Notes: generated from the letters alone by a model not told the origin. DNA of 64,000 bases from Escherichia coli (GCF_044324875.1 NZ_CP172185.1), one strand, 5' to 3'. Shown: positions 45,605 through 55,413, counted from the stretch's first letter. Made by a program: numbers and translations.

Positions 45605-46018
45605 ATGGCTAATAAACCTTCGGCAGAAGAACTGAAAAAAAATTTGTCCGAGATGCAGTTCTACGTGACGCAGAATCATGGGACAGAGCCGCCATTTACG
45701 GGTCGTTTACTGCATAACAAGCGTGACGGCGTATATCACTGTTTGATCTGCGATGCCCCGCTGTTTCATTCCCAAACCAAGTATGATTCCGGCTGTGGCT
45801 GGCCCAGTTTCTACGAACCGGTGAGTGAAGAATCCATTCGTTATATCAAAGACTTGTCACATGGAATGCAGCGCATAGAAATTCGTTGCGGTAACTGTGA
45901 TGCCCATCTGGGGCATGTCTTCCCCGACGGGCCGCAGCCAACGGGTGAACGTTATTGTGTTAACTCTGCCTCTTTACGCTTTGCCGATGGCGAAAACGGC
46001 GAAGAAATCAACGGTTGA
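45605..46018 (+). CDS. msrB: Peptide methionine (R)-S-oxide reductase MsrB
   Basis: ORF 45575-46018; start at [12 protein letters not shown]... to give 137 aa; two CxxC zinc motifs and the catalytic Cys region present. Confidence 0.9.
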
Positions 46019-46059
46019 AAAAACGATTCAGCAACTTATTCCACAGGAGCGGAAAAATT

Positions 46060-46332
46060 ATGAATCTTGATGACATTATCAACAGCATGACGCCTGAGGT
46101 ATACCAGCGTTTGTCGACCGCCGTTGAATTGGGGAAATGGCCTGATGGCGTTGCGTTGACCGAGGAACAAAAAGAGAACTGCCTGCAACTGGTGATGCTG
46201 TGGCAAGCCCGCAATAATACCGAAGCACAGCATATGACAATTGACACAAATGGTCAGATGGTCATGAAGAGCAAACAACAGTTAAAAGAAGACTTTGGTA
46301 TCTCAGCAAAGCCTATTGCCATGTTTAAGTAA
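46060..46332 (+). CDS. yeaC: DUF1315 family protein YeaC
   Basis: ORF 46015-46332; start at MNLDDIINSMTPEVYQRL... to give 90 aa. Confidence 0.85.
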   Translation: MNLDDIINSMTPEVYQRLSTAVELGKWPDGVALTEEQKENCLQLVMLWQARNNTEAQHMTIDTNGQMVMKSKQQLKEDFGISAKPIAMFK

Positions 46333-46700
46333 GTGGTTTGTCCCCTTTTTGCCGCGGTTATAAAGGGGATAGCCAACAATAACCCACGACTCATCTCAAT
46401 TATCTCGTCACGACCAGGCTAAGTCCCAGCCCGGTCTCTTGCAGTCGCGTTCACGCCTGAATGACTTCTCCTGAACTTAAGTCTCAGACCTATTTGGCCG
46501 GTAATCCCTCTCAAATTTGCTCATTTTGCGTTCCGCCTTCCATCAACCTGTAACAGATCCAGCCATTTTCTGCGTAATTGTGATCTGAGTTGTAAAACGC
46601 AGATCATTATCTGTGTTCTACAGATTTAATGTTGACCTCAAAAATCATGTGGGTAAGTATGATGACCATCTAAGCAAAACAAAACACAGAGGATGACGCA

Positions 46701-47777
46701 ATGAAAGCACTGGCTCGGTTTGGCAAAGCCTTTGGCGGCTACAAGATGATCGATGTCCCACAACCCATTTGTGGCCCGGAAGATGTAGTGATTGAAATTA
46801 AAGCCGCGGCAATCTGCGGCGCAGACATGAAGCACTACAATGTCGATAGCGGTTCTGATGAGTTTAACTCTATCCGCGGCCATGAGTTCGCAGGTTGTAT
46901 TGCGCAGGTTGGTGAAAAAGTCAAAGACTGGAAAGTGGGGCAACGCGTCGTGTCGGATAACAGCGGTCACGTCTGCGGCGTTTGTCCGGCCTGTGAACAA
47001 GGTGATTTTCTGTGTTGTACAGAAAAAGTAAACCTTGGTCTGGATAACAATACCTGGGGCGGTGGTTTTTCCAAATATTGTCTTGTTCCTGGTGAAATTC
47101 TCAAAATTCATCGTCATGCGTTGTGGGAAATCCCTGATGGTGTTGATTATGAGGACGCAGCCGTACTTGACCCTATCTGTAATGCCTACAAATCCATCGC
47201 GCAGCAATCGAAATTCCTTCCTGGTCAGGATGTGGTCGTCATCGGCACTGGCCCACTCGGGCTGTTCTCCGTACAAATGGCGCGGATTATGGGGGCGGTA
47301 AATATCGTCGTCGTTGGTCTGCAAGAAGATGTGGCGGTCAGCTTTCCGGTTGCAAAAGAACTGGGTGCGACGACTGTAGTAAATGGTTCTACCGAAGATG
47401 TGGTGGCGCGCTGCCAGCAAATTTGTGGCAAAGACAATCTGGGACTGGTGATTGAATGCTCCGGTGCCAATATCGCACTGAAACAAGCCATCGAAATGCT
47501 CCGTCCGAACGGGGAAGTGGTACGCGTTGGAATGGGCTTCAAACCTCTTGATTTCTCGATTAATGACATTACCGCCTGGAACAAAAGCATCATTGGGCAT
47601 ATGGCCTATGACTCCACCTCATGGCGTAACGCTCTCCGGCTATTAGCCAGCGGCGCTATCAACGTCAAACCGATGATCACGCATCGTATCGGCCTGTCGC
47701 AATGGCGCGAAGGGTTTGATGCGATGGTCGATAAAACCGCAATCAAAGTGATCATGACTTACGACTTTGATGAATAA
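46701..47777 (+). CDS. ydjL: Zinc-dependent alcohol/polyol dehydrogenase YdjL (MDR family)
   Basis: 358-aa ORF with zinc-binding Cys/His pattern (GHEFAG; CGVCPACEQGD) and Rossmann GxGxxG. Confidence 0.88.
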   Translation: MKALARFGKAFGGYKMIDVPQPICGPEDVVIEIKAAAICGADMKHYNVDSGSDEFNSIRGHEFAGCIAQVGEKVKDWKVGQRVVSDNSGHVCGVCPACEQGDFLCCTEKVNLGLDNNTWGGGFSKYCLVPGEILKIHRHALWEIPDGVDYEDAAVLDPICNAYKSIAQQSKFLPGQDVVVIGTGPLGLFSVQMARIMGAVNIVVVGLQEDVAVSFPVAKELGATTVVNGSTEDVVARCQQICGKDNLGLVIECSGANIALKQAIEMLRPNGEVVRVGMGFKPLDFSINDITAWNKSIIGHMAYDSTSWRNALRLLASGAINVKPMITHRIGLSQWREGFDAMVDKTAIKVIMTYDFDE

Positions 47778-47803
47778 CTACTCTCCTGAAGGAACGTTAT
47801 CGC

Positions 47804-49183
47804 ATGGAACAGATAACAAAACCGCATTGTGGTGCACGGCTGGATCGCTTACCGGATTGCCGCTGGCATTCGTCAATGTTTGCCATCGTCGCGTTTGGCT
47901 TGCTTGTCTGCTGGAGTAATGCCGTTGGTGGCTTGATCCTCGCGCAGCTGAAAGAGTTGGGCTGGACAGATAATTCCACCACTGCCACATTCTCAGCAAT
48001 CACGACCGCCGGAATGTTTCTCGGTGCGCTGGTTGGCGGCATCATCGGTGACAAAACCGGTCGCAGAAATGCGTTCATCCTCTATGAGGCCATTCATATT
48101 GCCTCGATGGTGGTCGGTGCTTTTTCACCGAATATGGATTTCCTTATTGCCTGCCGTTTTGTGATGGGCGTTGGGCTGGGAGCTTTACTGGTGACGCTGT
48201 TTGCTGGTTTCACCGAATATATGCCCGGTAGAAATCGCGGAACGTGGTCCAGTCGGGTTTCTTTTATTGGCAACTGGTCATATCCGCTCTGTTCATTGAT
48301 TGCGATGGGACTCACGCCGCTGATTAGTGCAGAGTGGAACTGGCGGGTACAACTGCTTATCCCTGCAATATTGTCGCTTATCGCTACGGCGCTGGCCTGG
48401 CGCTACTTTCCTGAATCCCCGCGCTGGCTGGAATCGCGCGGACGGTATCAGGAAGCCGAGAAAGTCATGCGGAGTATAGAAGAAGGCGTCATACGCCAGA
48501 CGGGAAAACCTTTGCCGCCCGTGGTTATTGCTGATGACGGTAAAGCGCCACAAGCGGTGCCGTATTCAGCCTTACTGACAGGAGTATTACTGAAACGCGT
48601 GATATTAGGTTCTTGTGTGCTGATTGCCATGAACGTTGTGCAGTACACACTAATTAACTGGTTGCCAACAATATTCATGACCCAGGGGATTAATTTAAAA
48701 GACTCGATTGTTTTAAATACCATGAGTATGTTTGGTGCGCCATTTGGTATTTTTATTGCCATGCTGGTGATGGATAAAATTCCGCGTAAAACAATGGGTG
48801 TGGGGCTATTAATCCTGATTGCGGTGCTCGGATATATCTATTCACTGCAAACCAGTATGTTGCTCATAACGCTGATTGGTTTCTTCCTGATTACTTTCGT
48901 CTATATGTACGTTTGCTATGCCTCGGCAGTGTATGTCCCTGAGATCTGGCCGACAGAGGCCAAATTACGTGGCTCCGGTCTGGCGAATGCGGTAGGGCGA
49001 ATCAGTGGTATTGCCGCACCTTATGCCGTTGCAGTGCTGCTCAGTAGTTATGGCGTAACGGGAGTCTTTATTCTTCTGGGGGCTGTTTCAATTATTGTCG
49101 CAATTGCTATCGCCACCATTGGAATTGAAACTAAAGGTGTCTCCGTTGAAAGTTTAAGTATTGATGCAGTAGTCAATAAATAA
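47804..49183 (+). CDS. ydjK: MFS transporter YdjK
   Basis: 459-aa 12-TM ORF with MFS signature (GDKTGRR). Confidence 0.88.
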   Translation: MEQITKPHCGARLDRLPDCRWHSSMFAIVAFGLLVCWSNAVGGLILAQLKELGWTDNSTTATFSAITTAGMFLGALVGGIIGDKTGRRNAFILYEAIHIASMVVGAFSPNMDFLIACRFVMGVGLGALLVTLFAGFTEYMPGRNRGTWSSRVSFIGNWSYPLCSLIAMGLTPLISAEWNWRVQLLIPAILSLIATALAWRYFPESPRWLESRGRYQEAEKVMRSIEEGVIRQTGKPLPPVVIADDGKAPQAVPYSALLTGVLLKRVILGSCVLIAMNVVQYTLINWLPTIFMTQGINLKDSIVLNTMSMFGAPFGIFIAMLVMDKIPRKTMGVGLLILIAVLGYIYSLQTSMLLITLIGFFLITFVYMYVCYASAVYVPEIWPTEAKLRGSGLANAVGRISGIAAPYAVAVLLSSYGVTGVFILLGAVSIIVAIAIATIGIETKGVSVESLSIDAVVNK

Positions 49184-49199
49184 TACTGGTGGATTCAAA

Positions 49200-50243
49200 A
49201 TGAAAAATTCAAAAGCAATATTGCAGGTGCCGGGCATAATGAAAATTATTTCAGCAGAAATACCTGTGCCTAAAGAAGATGAAGTTTTGATTAAAGTGGA
49301 ATATGTCGGTATTTGTGGTTCAGATGTACATGGTTTTGAATCAGGCCCGTTTATTCCGCCTAAAGACCCAAATCAAGAAATTGGCCTGGGACATGAATGC
49401 GCCGGGACGGTTGTGGCTGTGGGAAGCCGTGTGCGCAAATTTAAAGCGGGGGATCGGGTAAATATCGAACCTGGCGTTCCTTGCGGTCACTGTCGTTACT
49501 GTCTGGAAGGCAAATATAACATCTGCCCGGACGTTGATTTTATGGCGACACAACCTAACTACCGCGGCGCATTAACGCACTATCTGTGTCATCCGGAGAG
49601 CTTTACTTACAAACTGCCCGACAATATGGACACGATGGAAGGGGCGCTGGTGGAGCCTGCCGCAGTCGGGATGCATGCCGCGATGCTGGCAGATGTTAAA
49701 CCGGGTAAGAAGATAATTATTCTGGGAGCGGGTTGTATTGGTTTGATGACGTTGCAAGCGTGCAAATGCCTGGGAGCTACGGATATTGCCGTCGTTGATG
49801 TACTGGAAAAACGTCTGACAATGGCGGAACAGCTCGGCGCGACAGTGGTTATTAACGGCGCAAAAGAAGACACTATTGCACGCTGTCAGCAATTTACCGA
49901 AGAAATGGGCGCAGATATTGTTTTCGAAACAGCGGGTTCTGCGGTCACCGTTAAACAGGCACCTTATCTGGTAATGCGCGGCGGTAAAATTATGATTGTT
50001 GGTACTGTACCGGGCGATTCGGCAATCAATTTCCTCAAAATCAATCGCGAAGTCACTATTCAGACAGTATTCCGCTATGCCAATCGTTATCCGGTCACGA
50101 TTGAAGCTATTTCCTCAGGGCGATTCGATGTGAAATCGATGGTGACACATATTTACGATTATCAGGATGTACAACAGGCATTTGAAGAGTCGGTTAACAA
50201 CAAACGCGACATTATTAAAGGCGTTATTAAAATTAGCGATTAA
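49200..50243 (+). CDS. ydjJ: Zinc-dependent alcohol/polyol dehydrogenase YdjJ (MDR family)
   Basis: 347-aa ORF with zinc ligands (GHECAG; CGHCRYCLEG) and GAGCIG nucleotide-binding motif. Confidence 0.88.
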   Translation: MKNSKAILQVPGIMKIISAEIPVPKEDEVLIKVEYVGICGSDVHGFESGPFIPPKDPNQEIGLGHECAGTVVAVGSRVRKFKAGDRVNIEPGVPCGHCRYCLEGKYNICPDVDFMATQPNYRGALTHYLCHPESFTYKLPDNMDTMEGALVEPAAVGMHAAMLADVKPGKKIIILGAGCIGLMTLQACKCLGATDIAVVDVLEKRLTMAEQLGATVVINGAKEDTIARCQQFTEEMGADIVFETAGSAVTVKQAPYLVMRGGKIMIVGTVPGDSAINFLKINREVTIQTVFRYANRYPVTIEAISSGRFDVKSMVTHIYDYQDVQQAFEESVNNKRDIIKGVIKISD

Positions 50244-50263
50244 TTAATACGGGAGAACAGAAT

Positions 50264-51100
50264 ATGCTCGCAGATATCAGATATTGGGAAAACGATGCTA
50301 CAAATAAACATTATGCAATTGCCCATTTTAACGTATGGAATGCAGAAATGTTGATGGGCGTTATCGACGCAGCCGAAGAAGCGAAATCACCGGTTATTAT
50401 TTCTTTTGGTACAGGTTTTGTCGGGAACACCTCATTTGAAGATTTCTCTCACATGATGGTATCAATGGCAAAAAAAGCAACGGTGCCGGTAATAACTCAT
50501 TGGGATCATGGTCGGAGTATGGAAATTATTCATAACGCCTGGACTCATGGTATGAATTCATTAATGCGTGATGCTTCCGCATTTGATTTCGAAGAAAATA
50601 TTCGTTTAACCAAAGAGGCTGTTGATTTCTTCCATCCGCTGGGTATTCCGGTAGAGGCAGAATTAGGGCATGTCGGCAATGAAACCGTTTATGAAGAAGC
50701 GCTGGCGGGCTATCACTATACCGATCCTGACCAGGCGGCTGAATTTGTTGAACGTACGGGCTGTGACTCATTGGCTGTCGCCATCGGCAACCAGCATGGG
50801 GTTTATACGTCAGAGCCACAATTGAACTTTGAGGTCGTCAAACGCGTACGCGATGCTGTTTCTGTTCCGCTGGTTTTGCACGGCGCATCGGGGATCAGTG
50901 ATACCGACATTAAAACTGCAATTTCGTTGGGTATCGCGAAAATCAACATTCATACGGAGCTCTGTCAGGCCGCAATGGTAGCAGTGAAAGAAAACCAGGA
51001 TCAGCCTTTCCTGCATTTAGAACGTGAAGTACGTAAAGCTGTAAAAGAACGGGCATTGGAAAAAATTAAACTGTTCGGTTCTGATGGCAAAGCGGAATAA
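50264..51100 (+). CDS. ydjI: Class II (zinc) ketose-bisphosphate aldolase YdjI
   Basis: 278-aa ORF of the FbaA/GatY/KbaY-like aldolase family. Confidence 0.9.
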   Translation: MLADIRYWENDATNKHYAIAHFNVWNAEMLMGVIDAAEEAKSPVIISFGTGFVGNTSFEDFSHMMVSMAKKATVPVITHWDHGRSMEIIHNAWTHGMNSLMRDASAFDFEENIRLTKEAVDFFHPLGIPVEAELGHVGNETVYEEALAGYHYTDPDQAAEFVERTGCDSLAVAIGNQHGVYTSEPQLNFEVVKRVRDAVSVPLVLHGASGISDTDIKTAISLGIAKINIHTELCQAAMVAVKENQDQPFLHLEREVRKAVKERALEKIKLFGSDGKAE

Positions 51101-51104
51101 TGAT

Positions 51105-52052
51105 ATGGATAATCTCGACGTTATTTGTATAGGTGCCGCTATTGTTGATATTCCATTGCAACCGGTCAGTAAAAATATCTTTGATGTGGATTCTTATCCT
51201 CTTGAAAGAATCGCAATGACCACCGGGGGTGATGCAATAAATGAAGCAACAATTATTTCTCGTCTGGGCCATCGCACAGCATTAATGAGTCGTGTTGGTA
51301 AAGATGCCGCAGGACAATTTATTCTCGACCATTGCCGCAAAGAGAATATTGATATTCAAAGCCTGAAGCAGGACGTCAGCATAGATACCTCTATTAACGT
51401 TGGACTGGTGACGGAGGATGGCGAGCGGACGTTTGTCACAAACCGTAACGGCAGTCTGTGGAAATTGAATATTGACGATGTTGATTTTGCGCGGTTTTCT
51501 CAGGCGAAATTATTATCACTGGCCAGTATTTTCAACAGTCCTCTATTGGATGGTAAAGCGCTAACAGAAATTTTTACGCAAGCTAAAGCCCGGCAGATGA
51601 TTATCTGTGCCGATATGATCAAACCACGGTTGAATGAAACGCTGGATGATATTTGCGAAGCATTGAGTTTTGTCGATTATCTATTTCCTAATTTTGCCGA
51701 GGCAAAATTACTCACCGGGAAAGAGACACTGGATGAAATTGCTGACTGCTTTCTTGCGTGCGGCGTAAAAACGGTGGTGATTAAAACGGGTAAAGACGGC
51801 TGCTTTATCAAGCGTGGTGACATGACGATGAAGGTGCCGGCGGTCGCAGGAATAACCGCCATCGACACCATTGGCGCGGGCGATAACTTTGCTTCAGGTT
51901 TTATTGCGGCACTGTTAGAAGGCAAAAATCTGCGTGAATGCGCACGCTTTGCCAATGCAACGGCGGCTATCTCGGTTCTAAGCGTCGGTGCCACCACCGG
52001 CGTAAAAAACAGAAAGCTGGTCGAACAATTGCTGGAAGAATACGAAGGATAA
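51105..52052 (+). CDS. ydjH: PfkB-family sugar kinase YdjH
   Basis: ORF 51084-52052; start at MDNLDVICIGAAIVD... to give 315 aa; ribokinase-like GAGD motif near the C-terminus. Confidence 0.88.
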   Translation: MDNLDVICIGAAIVDIPLQPVSKNIFDVDSYPLERIAMTTGGDAINEATIISRLGHRTALMSRVGKDAAGQFILDHCRKENIDIQSLKQDVSIDTSINVGLVTEDGERTFVTNRNGSLWKLNIDDVDFARFSQAKLLSLASIFNSPLLDGKALTEIFTQAKARQMIICADMIKPRLNETLDDICEALSFVDYLFPNFAEAKLLTGKETLDEIADCFLACGVKTVVIKTGKDGCFIKRGDMTMKVPAVAGITAIDTIGAGDNFASGFIAALLEGKNLRECARFANATAAISVLSVGATTGVKNRKLVEQLLEEYEG

Positions 52053-52061
52053 TGAAGGCAA

Positions 52062-53042
52062 ATGAAAAAGATACCTTTAGGCACAACGGATATTACGCTT
52101 TCGCGAATGGGGTTGGGGACATGGGCCATTGGCGGCGGTCCTGCATGGAATGGCGATCTCGATCAGCAAATATGTATTGATACGATTCTTGAAGCCCATC
52201 GTTGTGGCATTAATCTGATTGATACTGCGCCAGGATATAACTTTGGCAATAGTGAAGTTATCGTCGGTCAGGCGTTAAAAAAACTGCCCCGTGAACAGGT
52301 TGTAGTAGAAACCAAATGCGGCATTGTCTGGGAACGAAAAGGAAGTTTATTCAACAAAGTTGGCGATCGGCAGTTGTATAAAAACCTTTCCCCGGAATCT
52401 ATCCGCGAAGAGGTAGAAGCCAGCTTGCAACGTCTGGGTATTGATTACATCGATATCTACATGACGCACTGGCAGTCGGTGCCGCCATTTTTTACGCCGA
52501 TCGCTGAAACTGTCGCAGTGCTCAATGAGTTAAAGGCCGAAGGGAAAATTCGCGCTATAGGCGCTGCTAACGTCGATGCTGACCATATCCGCGAGTATCT
52601 GCAATATGGTGAACTGGATATTATTCAGGCGAAATACAGTATCCTCGACCGGGCAATGGAAAGCGAACTGCTGCCGCTATGTCGTGATAATGGCATTGTG
52701 GTACAGGTTTATTCCCCGTTAGAGCAGGGATTGTTGACCGGTACCATCACTCGTGATTACGTCCCGGGCGGCGCTCGGGCAAATAAAGTCTGGTTCCAGC
52801 GTGAAAACATGCTGAAAGTGATTGATATGCTTGAACAGTGGCAGCCACTCTGTGCTCGTTATCAGTGCACAATTCCCACTCTGGCACTGGCGTGGATATT
52901 AAAACAGAGTGATTTAATCTCCATTCTTAGTGGGGCTACTGCACCGGAACAGGTACGCGAAAATGTCGCGGCATTGAATATCAACTTATCGGATGCAGAC
53001 GCAACATTGATGAGGGAAATGGCAGAGGCCCTGGAGCGTTAA
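52062..53042 (+). CDS. ydjG: Aldo-keto reductase YdjG
   Basis: 326-aa ORF MKKIPLGTTDITLSRMGLGTWAIGG... with AKR catalytic tetrad context. Confidence 0.9.
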   Translation: MKKIPLGTTDITLSRMGLGTWAIGGGPAWNGDLDQQICIDTILEAHRCGINLIDTAPGYNFGNSEVIVGQALKKLPREQVVVETKCGIVWERKGSLFNKVGDRQLYKNLSPESIREEVEASLQRLGIDYIDIYMTHWQSVPPFFTPIAETVAVLNELKAEGKIRAIGAANVDADHIREYLQYGELDIIQAKYSILDRAMESELLPLCRDNGIVVQVYSPLEQGLLTGTITRDYVPGGARANKVWFQRENMLKVIDMLEQWQPLCARYQCTIPTLALAWILKQSDLISILSGATAPEQVRENVAALNINLSDADATLMREMAEALER

Positions 53043-53178
53043 ATACTCAACACGATTCACCTCTGTTTCTGTGAAAACTGTGATGAAAATCTGTGATTCA
53101 AACAGGTTATTTTGAAAGTAAACATCAATTATGCGATAATCGCGCTAATGTGATGTAAAAAGATACAGGGGTGTAATC

Positions 53179-53937
53179 GTGGCGGCAAAAGACAGGATTC
53201 AGGCAATTAAGCAAATGGTTGCCAACGATAAAAAGGTGACAGTCTCAAATTTGAGTGGGATTTTTCAGGTAACCGAAGAAACCATTCGCCGCGATCTTGA
53301 GAAGCTGGAAGATGAAGGCTTTTTGACCAGAACCTATGGTGGTGCTGTTTTAAATACAGCGATGTTGACGGAGAATATCCATTTTTATAAGCGCGCTTCA
53401 TCGTTTTATGAAGAGAAGCAGCTTATTGCACGCAAGGCACTACCCTTTATCGACAATAAAACCACCATGGCAGCCGATTCCAGTAGTACCGTAATGGAAT
53501 TGCTCAAATTGTTACAGGACCGTAGTGACCTGACGTTGCTAACCAACTCGGCGGAAGCGATTCATGTTCTGGCTCAGTCAGAAATTAAAGTCGTTTCAAC
53601 GGGTGGGGAACTAAACAAAAATACACTTTCCCTGCAAGGAAGAATTACTAAAGAGATCATCAGCCGCTACCATGTCGATATCATGGTAATGAGTTGTAAA
53701 GGTCTAGATATTAACAGTGGCGCGCTGGACTCTAACGAAGCGGAAGCTGAAATCAAAAAGACAATGATCCGTCAGGCGACAGAGGTTGCGTTATTGGTTG
53801 ATCACTCTAAGTTTGATCGCAAAGCTTTTGTCCAGTTAGCTGACTTTAGTCATATTAATTACATAATAACTGATAAATCACCGGGTGCAGAGTGGATAGC
53901 ATTTTGCAAAGACAATAATATCCAGCTGGTGTGGTAA
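53179..53937 (+). CDS. ydjF: DeoR-family transcriptional regulator YdjF
   Basis: 252-aa ORF with GTG start; N-terminal HTH and C-terminal sugar-phosphate-binding (DeoR C) domain. Confidence 0.88.
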   Translation: MAAKDRIQAIKQMVANDKKVTVSNLSGIFQVTEETIRRDLEKLEDEGFLTRTYGGAVLNTAMLTENIHFYKRASSFYEEKQLIARKALPFIDNKTTMAADSSSTVMELLKLLQDRSDLTLLTNSAEAIHVLAQSEIKVVSTGGELNKNTLSLQGRITKEIISRYHVDIMVMSCKGLDINSGALDSNEAEAEIKKTMIRQATEVALLVDHSKFDRKAFVQLADFSHINYIITDKSPGAEWIAFCKDNNIQLVW

Positions 53938-54054
53938 TTTAAGCACACGTTGTCAATATTATTTGTTCCTGCGCCTGGAAAATAAAATGATGGTAAAGAT
54001 GCGGCAAGTGAATTTGCCGCAATTGCTACCTTTTTAGCAAATCCGAGGCACCTA

Positions 54055-55413
54055 ATGGAACAATATGATCAAATTGGCGCAAGACTGGACCGCTTGCCTT
54101 TGGCCCGGTTTCATTATCGTATATTTGGTATTATAAGCTTTAGTCTGTTATTAACGGGTTTTTTGAGTTATTCAGGCAATGTTGTTTTAGCAAAGCTGGT
54201 AAGCAATGGATGGTCAAATAATTTCCTCAATGCCGCCTTTACCTCGGCATTAATGTTTGGTTATTTCATCGGCTCTCTTACCGGTGGGTTCATCGGTGAT
54301 TATTTTGGGCGGCGCAGGGCTTTTCGCATAAATCTTCTCATCGTCGGTATTGCGGCAACAGGGGCCGCTTTTGTCCCTGATATGTACTGGTTCATCTTCT
54401 TTCGCTTCCTGATGGGCACAGGAATGGGGGCGCTGATTATGGTTGGCTATGCTTCGTTTACGGAGTTTATCCCCGCGACGGTGCGTGGAAAATGGTCCGC
54501 GCGACTCTCATTTGTCGGTAACTGGTCGCCCATGTTGTCTGCGGCGATAGGCGTGGTGGTTATCGCTTTTTTTAGTTGGCGGATAATGTTTCTGCTGGGT
54601 GGTATTGGCATACTGTTAGCCTGGTTTCTCTCAGGTAAATACTTTATTGAGTCGCCTCGATGGTTGGCGGGGAAAGGACAAATCGCAGGTGCAGAAAGCC
54701 AACTTCGTGAAGTAGAGCAGCAAATTGAAAGAGAGAAGAGTGTTCGTTTACCCCCGCTTACTTTGAATCAGAGCAACAGCAAGGCTAACGTAATCAATGG
54801 TACTTTCTGGCTGCTGTTTAAAGGGGAAATGTTACGACGTACATTAGTCGCGATTACTGTTTTAATTGCAATGAATATTTCACTTTATACCATCACCGTA
54901 TGGATACCGACCATATTTGTTAACTCCGGCATTGATGTCGATAAATCAATATTAATGACTGCTGTTATTATGATTGGCGCTCCGGTAGGAATATTTATTG
55001 CGGCATTAATTATTGATCATTTTCCTCGTCGATTATTTGGCTCCGCCTTACTTATTATTATTGCCGTGTTAGGCTATATCTATTCAATTCAGACTACAGA
55101 GTGGGCGATTTTAATCTATGGCCTGGTGATGATCTTCTTTTTATACATGTATGTTTGCTTCGCGTCGGCGGTTTATATCCCGGAGCTCTGGCCAACGCAT
55201 TTACGCTTGCGCGGTTCGGGTTTCGTTAATGCCGTCGGACGGATCGTCGCGGTCTTCACGCCTTATGGCGTTGCGGCACTATTAACGCATTATGGGTCAA
55301 TTACGGTGTTTATAGTGCTTGGCGTGATGTTAGTGCTCTGTGCGCTGGTTCTCTCCATTTTTGGCATCGAAACGCGGAAGGTGTCATTGGAAGAGATTTC
55401 TGAGGTGAATTAA
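54055..55413 (+). CDS. ydjE: MFS transporter YdjE
   Basis: 452-aa 12-TM ORF with MFS signature (GDYFGRRR); paralogous to YdjK. Confidence 0.88.
   Translation: MEQYDQIGARLDRLPLARFHYRIFGIISFSLLLTGFLSYSGNVVLAKLVSNGWSNNFLNAAFTSALMFGYFIGSLTGGFIGDYFGRRRAFRINLLIVGIAATGAAFVPDMYWFIFFRFLMGTGMGALIMVGYASFTEFIPATVRGKWSARLSFVGNWSPMLSAAIGVVVIAFFSWRIMFLLGGIGILLAWFLSGKYFIESPRWLAGKGQIAGAESQLREVEQQIEREKSVRLPPLTLNQSNSKANVINGTFWLLFKGEMLRRTLVAITVLIAMNISLYTITVWIPTIFVNSGIDVDKSILMTAVIMIGAPVGIFIAALIIDHFPRRLFGSALLIIIAVLGYIYSIQTTEWAILIYGLVMIFFLYMYVCFASAVYIPELWPTHLRLRGSGFVNAVGRIVAVFTPYGVAALLTHYGSITVFIVLGVMLVLCALVLSIFGIETRKVSLEEISEVN

Follow-up and report, generated by a model that had tools for sequence, protein, structure and literature searches.

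Predicted operators of the DeoR-family regulator YdjF in the ydj catabolic cluster of Escherichia coli

The ydjL promoter of Escherichia coli is off in culture and is switched on in the mouse gut (PMC6561318). By which regulator, and through which DNA sites, might the genes behind it be controlled? The DNA considered here is a stretch of 64,000 nucleotides from E. coli (GCF_044324875.1, NZ_CP172185.1), referred to throughout as the window; its positions 46333 to 55413 hold the ydj catabolic cluster, already known in this species and made up of a tight ydjLKJIHG operon, of ydjF with a promoter of its own, and of ydjE. Among the orphan carbohydrate clusters of E. coli it is one of the better studied, with structures and in vitro substrates available, and few triggers found in mice are induced in the gut as consistently as its ydjL promoter; the literature that we searched yielded no paper on the binding sites of YdjF, on its inducer or on its control of ydjL. 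An earlier note on this DNA, made from the sequence alone, had proposed an inverted repeat in the spacer upstream of ydjL, TGATCTG-N12-CAGATCA, as a candidate operator. The present analysis points to a neighbouring palindrome, recognisable across phyla, as the likelier YdjF site. We consider it probable that YdjF represses through three operators, here called O1, O2 and OF, possibly with a loop between O1 and O2, and that repression is relieved by a sugar phosphate. The cluster and its enzymes were already known; what is new is a predicted operator set of a known kind.

Operators predicted for YdjF

Loci for comparison were collected by way of an alignment of YdjF orthologues from species-representative genomes (at least eight Enterobacterales loci), with seven more added by exact-protein look-up. 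In the Firmicute loci, the DNA upstream of ydjL carries a repeated palindrome, TCT[GT]TG-AAA-CA[CA]AGA, with A/T-rich flanks, that lies beside or over the -35 element and the promoter spacer. In the 7.5 kb examined upstream of ydjL there are 13 perfect TCT[GT]T-N5-A[CA]AGA sites, as against 0.06 expected from shuffled sequences and a rate of 0.04 per kb elsewhere in the same loci; an unseeded search for enriched k-mers recovers the same words, ACAGAAA, CAAAGAA and TGAAACA included. The operator model is a 21-nt weight matrix made exclusively from non-enterobacterial ydjL upstream sites (Firmicutes, Actinobacteria and one species of Pasteurellaceae), and its consensus is TTTCTGTGTTTCACAGATTTT, of the type AAATCTKTG-WWW-CAMAGATTT. 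Its specificity was checked on 28 loci that have more distantly related DeoR paralogues but lack the ydj enzymes: these 569 kb contained 4 hits of at least 18 bits. A pooled 9-nt half-site model was also made and left unused, because the offset of the halves and the AT-richness of the sequence blurred it too much.

Scanned over the window (127,960 positions), the 21-nt model places its top four hits at O1, O2 and OF (Table 1), and the next best reaches 11.7 bits. O1 recurs in all 12 of the other gammaproteobacterial loci, at about -85 to -99 from the ydjL ATG and with 12.8-26.7 bits, as one of the top three hits in ten of them and in fourth or fifth place in the other two, Pectobacterium and Agarivorans. 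O2 recurs in all 12 as well, always at +306 and always among the top three (16.0-17.9 bits), and OF in ten, at about -91 to -94 from the ydjF start (12.8-24.9 bits); the scan of these 12 loci gave no hit at the OF position in Intestinirhabdus and Salmonella. The geometry at the two promoters is shared, O1 lying 3 nt upstream of the ydjL -35 element and OF 3 nt upstream of that of ydjF. In Firmicute loci the sites generally come in tandem, 20-23 bp apart, and in E. coli a degenerate auxiliary site and a half-site are found 21-22 bp upstream of O1 and OF, respectively. Homologues of the auxiliary site stand out in Serratia fonticola (18.8 bits) and can be made out in Intestinirhabdus (8.6 bits); the half-site is missing from Serratia sp. 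H1w only, among the seven Enterobacterales aligned. The scan of the window found no operator motif upstream of ydjE, the regulation of which may therefore be separate from this operator set. A further half-site-like sequence, AAACACAGAGGA at 46682-46693, near the ribosome-binding site, is kept only in the closest relatives and is not claimed as a site. The DNA of the window is not that of K-12 (99.5% identity to its best match), and the yeaC-ydjL spacers of the two differ, the centre of O1 at 46618 being C here and T in K-12.

Table 1. Genes, promoters, predicted operators and other elements of the ydj region (positions in the window)
Feature	Position	Strand	Remarks
Distal yeaC-ydjL spacer	46333..46577	+	C-rich, G-poor; unalignable in other genera
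TGTGATC box	46579..46585	+	most conserved ydjL promoter element; CRP-like left half-site or extra YdjF half-site
Inverted repeat of the earlier note	46581..46606	.	TGATCTG-N12-CAGATCA; extendable to 11/13 pairs
Weak auxiliary operator-like site	46585..46605	-	~22 bp upstream of O1; 2.1 bits, degenerate in E. coli
O1, predicted main YdjF operator	46608..46628	+	TATCTGTGTTCTACAGATTTA (ATCTGT-N5-ACAGAT); 20.7 bits, best of window
Predicted sigma-70 promoter of ydjLKJIHG	46632..46660	+	-35 TTGACC (46632-46637), 17-nt spacer, -10 AAGTAT (46655-46660)
ydjL	46701..47777	+	Zn-dependent MDR dehydrogenase
O2, predicted intragenic operator	47007..47027	+	TTTCTGTGTTGTACAGAAAAA, 8-bp perfect arms; 17.5 bits, second best
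ydjK	47804..49183	+	MFS transporter
ydjJ	49200..50243	+	Zn-dependent MDR dehydrogenase
ydjI	50264..51100	+	class II ketose-phosphate aldolase; TIGR00167 and PDB 6OFU match
ydjH	51105..52052	+	PfkB-family sugar kinase; PDB 3H49/3IN1 match; RefSeq start
ydjG	52062..53042	+	aldo-keto reductase; NF049922
Conserved half-site	53066..53077	+	TTTCTGTGAAAA; 22 bp upstream of OF left arm; kept in 6/7 aligned Enterobacterales
OF, predicted operator at ydjF promoter	53086..53108	.	AATCTGTGATTCAAACAGGTT; 14.4 and 13.2 bits, third and fourth best
ydjF promoter	53112..53140	+	TTGAAA-17-GATAAT; 10/12 consensus matches in scan
ydjF	53179..53937	+	DeoR/GlpR-family regulator; GTG start
Hairpin followed by TTTTT, ydjF-ydjE spacer	53992..54035	+	core GCGGCAA...TTGCCGC; z-score -1.82, weak
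ydjE	54055..55413	+	second MFS transporter; 44% identity to YdjK

The second site lies within ydjL, where it encodes FLCCTEK, its centre 399 bp from that of O1; a promoter operator and a distant operator of one type, the arrangement that looping calls for, are found at fixed offsets in all 13 loci. Third-codon identity between E. coli ydjL and its counterparts in six other genera is only ~50%. Within O2, 3 of the 21 columns vary, against a mean of 7 per 21-nt window of ydjL (so few are seen in only 4% of windows), and all three are neutral with respect to the motif. Among synonymous recodings of FLCCTEK weighted by codon usage, 1.5% score as high as O2. Firmicute YdjL proteins have FLCCE[SEN]K at this position and no site in the DNA (at most 11 bits there), and the threonine codon ACA, in the right arm of O2, is specific to the Gammaproteobacteria that carry the site.

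YdjF belongs to the DeoR family: a 99%-identical protein and the orthologues have PF08220 (HTH_DeoR) and PF00455 (DeoRC) on record, the GlpR, AgaR and SrlR models align with the whole length of the protein, and the nearest solved structure, that of DeoR (7L6L), matches its C-terminal half. It falls below every NCBIfam equivalog cutoff (152.8 bits against 260 for AgaR, 138.1 against 350 for SrlR, 137.7 against 259 for the L-fucose operon activator), and equating it with GlpR, AgaR, SrlR, FucR, DeoR, UlaR, YgbI or YciT was dropped, as no curated cutoff is reached. Across the carriers compared its amino-acid identity ranges from 44 to 90%, with an invariant recognition-helix segment, TEETIRRDLEK. 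We infer that YdjF is the binder of the motif because it is the sole regulator inherited with the cluster and because the motif stands at its own promoter and, in Firmicutes, also before the transporter gene that follows ydjF. That link is drawn from sequence and O2 sits in coding DNA, so that one might think instead of some other regulator reading the palindromes, or of their conservation for a non-transcriptional reason. Since ydjF is the only regulator gene that travels with the cluster from phylum to phylum, and the motif is rare near the more distant DeoR paralogues, we regard this as very improbable.

Promoters and the sign of control

When the ydjL upstream regions of the 13 gammaproteobacterial species are aligned, only the proximal ~125 bp can be matched, as a conserved block that begins at TTTGTGATC. 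Invariant in all 13 are GTTGA at the -35 element and positions 2 and 5 of the -10 element, the final T of which is nearly so, and these elements place the predicted start of ydjL transcription near 46667. A consensus scan of 46200-46800 found no promoter on the + strand and no intrinsic terminator; the ydjL promoter is absent from its list because only 8 of 12 consensus positions match. The ydjF promoter (Table 1) is among the constitutive sigma-70 promoters listed from genomic SELEX, systematic evolution of ligands by exponential enrichment (PMC3946193). The hairpin downstream of ydjF is a possible terminator of that gene; the terminator scan made no call there.

The mechanism that we propose is the following. 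YdjF would bind 21-bp palindromes of the AAATCTKTG-WWW-CAMAGATTT type beside the ydjL -35 element (O1), inside ydjL (O2) and beside its own -35 element (OF), and, as long as inducer is lacking, repress both promoters; OF would imply that ydjF is autoregulated. Like other DeoR-family repressors, it would probably oligomerise across O1, the weak auxiliary site and O2, forming a repression loop. The inducer would most likely be a phosphorylated intermediate of the pathway, such as the product of YdjH, this being usual for the family. Repression is favoured because the Firmicute sites overlap promoters, because the ydjF promoter needs no activator and because an intragenic operator recalls the loops of DeoR and GlpR.

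Several considerations weigh against this proposal. The seed of the operator model was picked by eye after the E. coli sequence had been viewed (the counts themselves come from other phyla only), and the gammaproteobacterial loci are related and in some cases probably horizontally exchanged, so that they do not amount to 13 independent observations. O2 is located where the protein is conserved and rich in Cys, and coding constraint on that region accordingly explains part of its conservation. The ydjL start is deduced from the promoter elements, and the only published construct takes 46225, inside yeaC, as the 5' end. With a start at ~46667, O1 would lie at about -59 to -39, a position that suits an activator as well as a repressor, and so weak a promoter might depend on activation. 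Both the loop and the nature of the inducer are extrapolated entirely from the behaviour of the family, and the literature searched yields no binding, footprint, chromatin immunoprecipitation or ydjF-deletion data for these sites.

As to the sign of control, FucR, an inducer-activated activator, is itself a member of the DeoR family, and YdjF might likewise act at O1 as an activator, or a dual regulator, of a weak ydjL promoter: O1 is clear of both the -35 and the -10 elements, the -10 hexamer is poor, and YdjF does match the NCBIfam model of the L-fucose operon activator, if below its cutoff (as given above). Silence of the promoter in culture and its activity in the gut would fit either sign. 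Against activation stand the sites of the Firmicutes and of Necropsobacter, which overlap the -35 element and the spacer in the manner of repressor sites, and the repetition of the O1 geometry at the ydjF promoter, which is used by RNA polymerase alone; a second operator within the gene is typical of repression loops, and members of the DeoR family are mostly repressors. An activating YdjF is thus unlikely in our judgement, and repression is the reading that we retain.

If YdjF is such a repressor, O1, O2 and OF make the regulatory half of the ydj problem directly testable: deletion of ydjF, or mutation of the operators, should unlock expression, and YdjF bound to O1 could serve as an assay for inducer screening. 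The outcome would be a solid and conventional addition to what is known of DeoR-family regulation, introducing no new principle.

The region upstream of O1

The repeat singled out by the earlier note is present, base for base, in the position assigned to it, within a yeaC-ydjL spacer (yeaC end at 46332, ydjL ATG at 46701) that measures 368 bp, as against the approximately 370 bp that had been stated. As described, with perfect 7-bp arms, it is not beyond chance, since an inverted repeat of that length with a loop of up to 20 nt turns up in 29% of dinucleotide-preserving shuffles of the spacer. It can be extended, either to 11-nt arms with 10 of 11 pairs or to 11 of 13 pairs over 26 nt, and, as only 0.5% of shuffles attain the latter, it is a real near-palindrome in E. 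coli. Its unusual statistics, its place inside the conserved promoter block, its identity in K-12 and the presence in each arm of TCTG or CAGA, the core of the YdjF half-site (with a 5/6 match to TCTGTG), are what could be said for the palindrome as being itself the main YdjF operator. The earlier note had let that candidacy hang on conservation in other carriers of the cluster, and there it fares poorly: complementarity of the arms is complete (7/7) in E. coli only, declines to 5-6/7 in Citrobacter, Salmonella and Enterobacter, and drops to 2-4/7 in Budvicia, Intestinirhabdus, Phytobacter, Brenneria, Pectobacterium, Serratia and Agarivorans, while O1 alongside stays strong. Moreover, its TCTG and CAGA cores are 5 bp wider apart than those of every strong site (half-sites spaced 8 nt rather than 3 nt, half a helical turn out of register), the operator model finds at most 2.1 bits inside it (at 46585-46605) compared with 20.7 bits for O1, and neither ydjF nor the other phyla have an equivalent long-spacer palindrome. 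A role as the main operator is therefore quite improbable. What stands of the original proposal is the location in the ~125-bp conserved block; as operator, the adjacent 46608-46628 is the better supported. Because its left arm overlaps the TGTGATC box and its right arm, CAGATCA, is also the right arm of the auxiliary site, the palindrome is a composite, probably an accessory element and not the primary operator. The repeat contains two GATC sites, for which a role in Dam methylation was considered and dropped, the second of them being lost in several carriers.

The TGTGATC box just upstream raises a separate possibility, compatible with repression by YdjF, namely that it is the left half of a class I type site for cyclic AMP-CRP, placing a catabolic operon under catabolite control. 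The pattern TGTGA.C is invariant at 46579-46585 in the 13 gammaproteobacterial species, all of which have CRP, and AATTGTGATCT is a good match to the left half of the CRP consensus; upstream of ydjL in Necropsobacter there is a perfect CRP-type palindrome, TGTGATCAAAATCACA (locus L033, 3278-3293). The targets of CRP in genomic SELEX include ydjF, the promoter of which is also TGTGA-rich, and ydjL is absent from that list (PMC3105977). The complete site, TGTGA-N6-TCACA, is not found: E. coli has a perfect left half and 2 of 5 matches in the right half, which is unlike TCACA in every one of the 13 species (TTGTA, TTGTG, CTGCG, CTGTG and others). A 7/10 match to the core is expected hundreds of times by chance in 64 kb, and the box resembles TCTGTGAT, the left half of OF, so that it may be a YdjF half-site instead. 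Control by CRP through this box is possible, if somewhat doubtful.

The distal part of the spacer is different in kind. Its GC skew goes down to -0.39, with C exceeding G over 46300-46600. A scan of 46000-47200 against Rfam, with E-values up to 1, gave no match, and a riboswitch or leader RNA in this long spacer is therefore unsupported. In published data, which show Rho-dependent termination of transcripts that enter ydjL, a Rho score of 20.7 has been assigned to K-12 position 1861188, which corresponds to ~46845 in the window, inside ydjL, with a positional accuracy of a few hundred nt, and a ydjL fusion is elevated more than 2-fold in the rho R66S mutant. Taken together, the 5' end at 46225, the C-rich and G-poor spacer and the Rho region at ~46845 suggest that msrB-yeaC transcripts are ended by Rho and not by a hairpin terminator, and the distal spacer is likely to be a Rho-loading zone that stops read-through from msrB-yeaC. 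In the scheme proposed here, the distal spacer and Rho would constitute a second layer of control, blocking that read-through before it enters the operon. In Citrobacter braakii (L006, 1528-3246; similarly in L002, L004 and L005) the yeaC-ydjL interval has received a 2-kb insertion that encodes, on the opposite strand, a GH18 chitinase-like protein (426 aa) and an HNH protein (137 aa), both unrelated to ydj; the conserved promoter block of ydjL begins at TTTGTGATC there too.

The cluster, its spread and its relatives

The gene content that the earlier note had read from the sequence is borne out: the region contains eight open reading frames, all co-oriented on the + strand, whose families in our searches are those that the note had listed, and the labels that RefSeq gives to matching E. 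coli DNA (ydjL, K, J, I, H, G, F and E, flanked by yeaC and pncA) are those of the ydjLKJIHG-ydjF-ydjE cluster named there. Gaps from ydjL to ydjG are tight (4-26 nt), and they widen to 136 bp before ydjF and 117 bp before ydjE. By megablast the stretch is matched in 4335 of 5426 complete E. coli genomes, at a best identity of 99.5%; the remaining 1091, about one fifth, have no match to the cluster.

YdjI scores 324.5 bits with TIGR00167 (the ketose-bisphosphate aldolase family; cutoff 215.6), which assigns it to the class II aldolases, aligns with PDB 6OFU ('YdjI aldolase') over 278 residues at E = 7.6e-187, and stays under the tagatose-bisphosphate aldolase cutoffs (226-246 bits against 383-444). 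YdjH matches PDB 3H49/3IN1 at E = 1.5e-205, PF00294 is present in its orthologues, marking a PfkB domain, and the family search put it above none of the NCBIfam equivalog cutoffs; the same search reached no equivalog cutoff for the dehydrogenases YdjL and YdjJ. YdjG exceeds the cutoff of its own equivalog, NF049922 (628.1 bits against 550). In K-12, RefSeq names YdjH as L-glycero-L-galacto-octuluronate kinase and YdjI as L-glycero-L-galacto-octuluronate-1-phosphate aldolase. PMC9602453 and PMC11194214 summarise the substrate preferences of both enzymes; in the former, YdjI prefers 7- to 9-carbon ketose-1-phosphates with a terminal carboxylate in vitro, and L-glycero-L-galacto-octuluronate is the best in vitro substrate, without a known natural abundance or source. 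To that extent, the natural substrate and the inducer are still as open as the earlier note had held them to be. In the pathway drawn from the literature, an acidic higher-carbon sugar or polyol would enter the cell through YdjK and YdjE, and YdjL, YdjJ and YdjG would catalyse redox steps; YdjH would phosphorylate a 2-ketose at C1, and YdjI would split the product into dihydroxyacetone phosphate (DHAP) and an aldehyde acid.

Elsewhere, the gene order ydjL-K-J-I-H-G-F is found in Citrobacter, Budvicia, Intestinirhabdus, Salmonella, Phytobacter, Brenneria, Pectobacterium, Serratia, Enterobacter and the alteromonad Agarivorans, and also in many gut Lachnospiraceae and Oscillospiraceae, in Ruminococcus, Anaerostipes and Veillonella, in one Atopobiaceae genome and in Necropsobacter. 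Between the Enterobacterales group and the other phyla, amino-acid identity is unusually high: 74-84% for YdjL, up to 86% for YdjI and 44-62% for YdjF. The G+C content of 46701-55413 is 46.3%, as compared with 50.5% in the remainder of the window, and together with the 84-86% identity that ydj proteins reach with their Lachnospiraceae counterparts this suggests a fairly recent transfer of the cluster between phyla of gut bacteria. In Brenneria corticis the cluster (L085, 14583-20710) is located away from the yeaC-pncA site, with a SIR2/NTPase gene, small helix-turn-helix genes and a phage-type integrase a few kb off, as would be expected if it were carried on a mobile island.

Outside E. coli the cluster mostly comes in a wider form, with two further genes. 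One, for a sugar-phosphate 3-epimerase of the AlsE/Rpe family, lies between ydjL and ydjK in at least 21 loci and in Pectobacterium (L015, 3576-4283, is an example); the other, for a DAACS (DctA/GltP-like) transporter, follows ydjF in at least 26 loci (L015, 11116-12462) and is usually preceded, where this was scanned, by clusters of the same operator motif. Extra epimerase or DAACS genes are likewise seen in L086 (3897-4589), L025, L020, L022, L026, L042, L033 and others. E. coli has neither, and carries the MFS gene ydjE in their place. These two additional functions point to an anionic substrate and to a ketose-phosphate epimerisation step, and so narrow the chemistry of the substrate. A more far-reaching suggestion, which we put forward tentatively and at less than even odds, is that ydj is a catabolic module shared horizontally within the gut microbiome, its YdjF-operator pair recognisable from Lachnospiraceae to E. 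coli and its common form provided with the epimerase and a co-regulated DAACS acid transporter, and that in Gammaproteobacteria a Glu-to-Thr change in YdjL created the intragenic operator, allowing a 400-bp repression loop. If this is true, the conserved operator offers a direct handle for finding a gut-derived inducer and substrate.

Closest to the subject by identity are the published YdjH and YdjI proteins (6OFU, 3H49), which are the proteins encoded here. Huddleston and Raushel reportedly described the specificity of both enzymes in 2019; such work deals with catalysis, in distinction to the present concern with YdjF and its operators. In its toolkit the cluster resembles the tagatose-phosphate pathways gat and aga (GatY/KbaY, a PfkB-type kinase, GatD, GatR/AgaR), with which it has in common an MDR dehydrogenase, a kinase, a DHAP-releasing class II aldolase and a DeoR-family regulator. 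It differs from them in uptake, by MFS transporters instead of a phosphotransferase system, and in adding a second dehydrogenase and an aldo-keto reductase.

For regulation, the nearest precedents are GlpR at glpD and DeoR at deo, E. coli repressors of the DeoR family that act at a distance, the distant operators of glpD lying inside the structural gene. YdjF shares with them the HTH_DeoR and DeoRC domains and the expectation of a sugar-phosphate effector, and its predicted sites would likewise provide several palindromic operators per promoter, one of them hundreds of bp away, and a regulator that is autoregulated or linked to its targets. It differs from GlpR and DeoR in reaching no equivalog cutoff and in having an operator type of its own, AAATCTKTG-N3-CAMAGATTT; for YdjF, binding, looping and effector are predictions made here.

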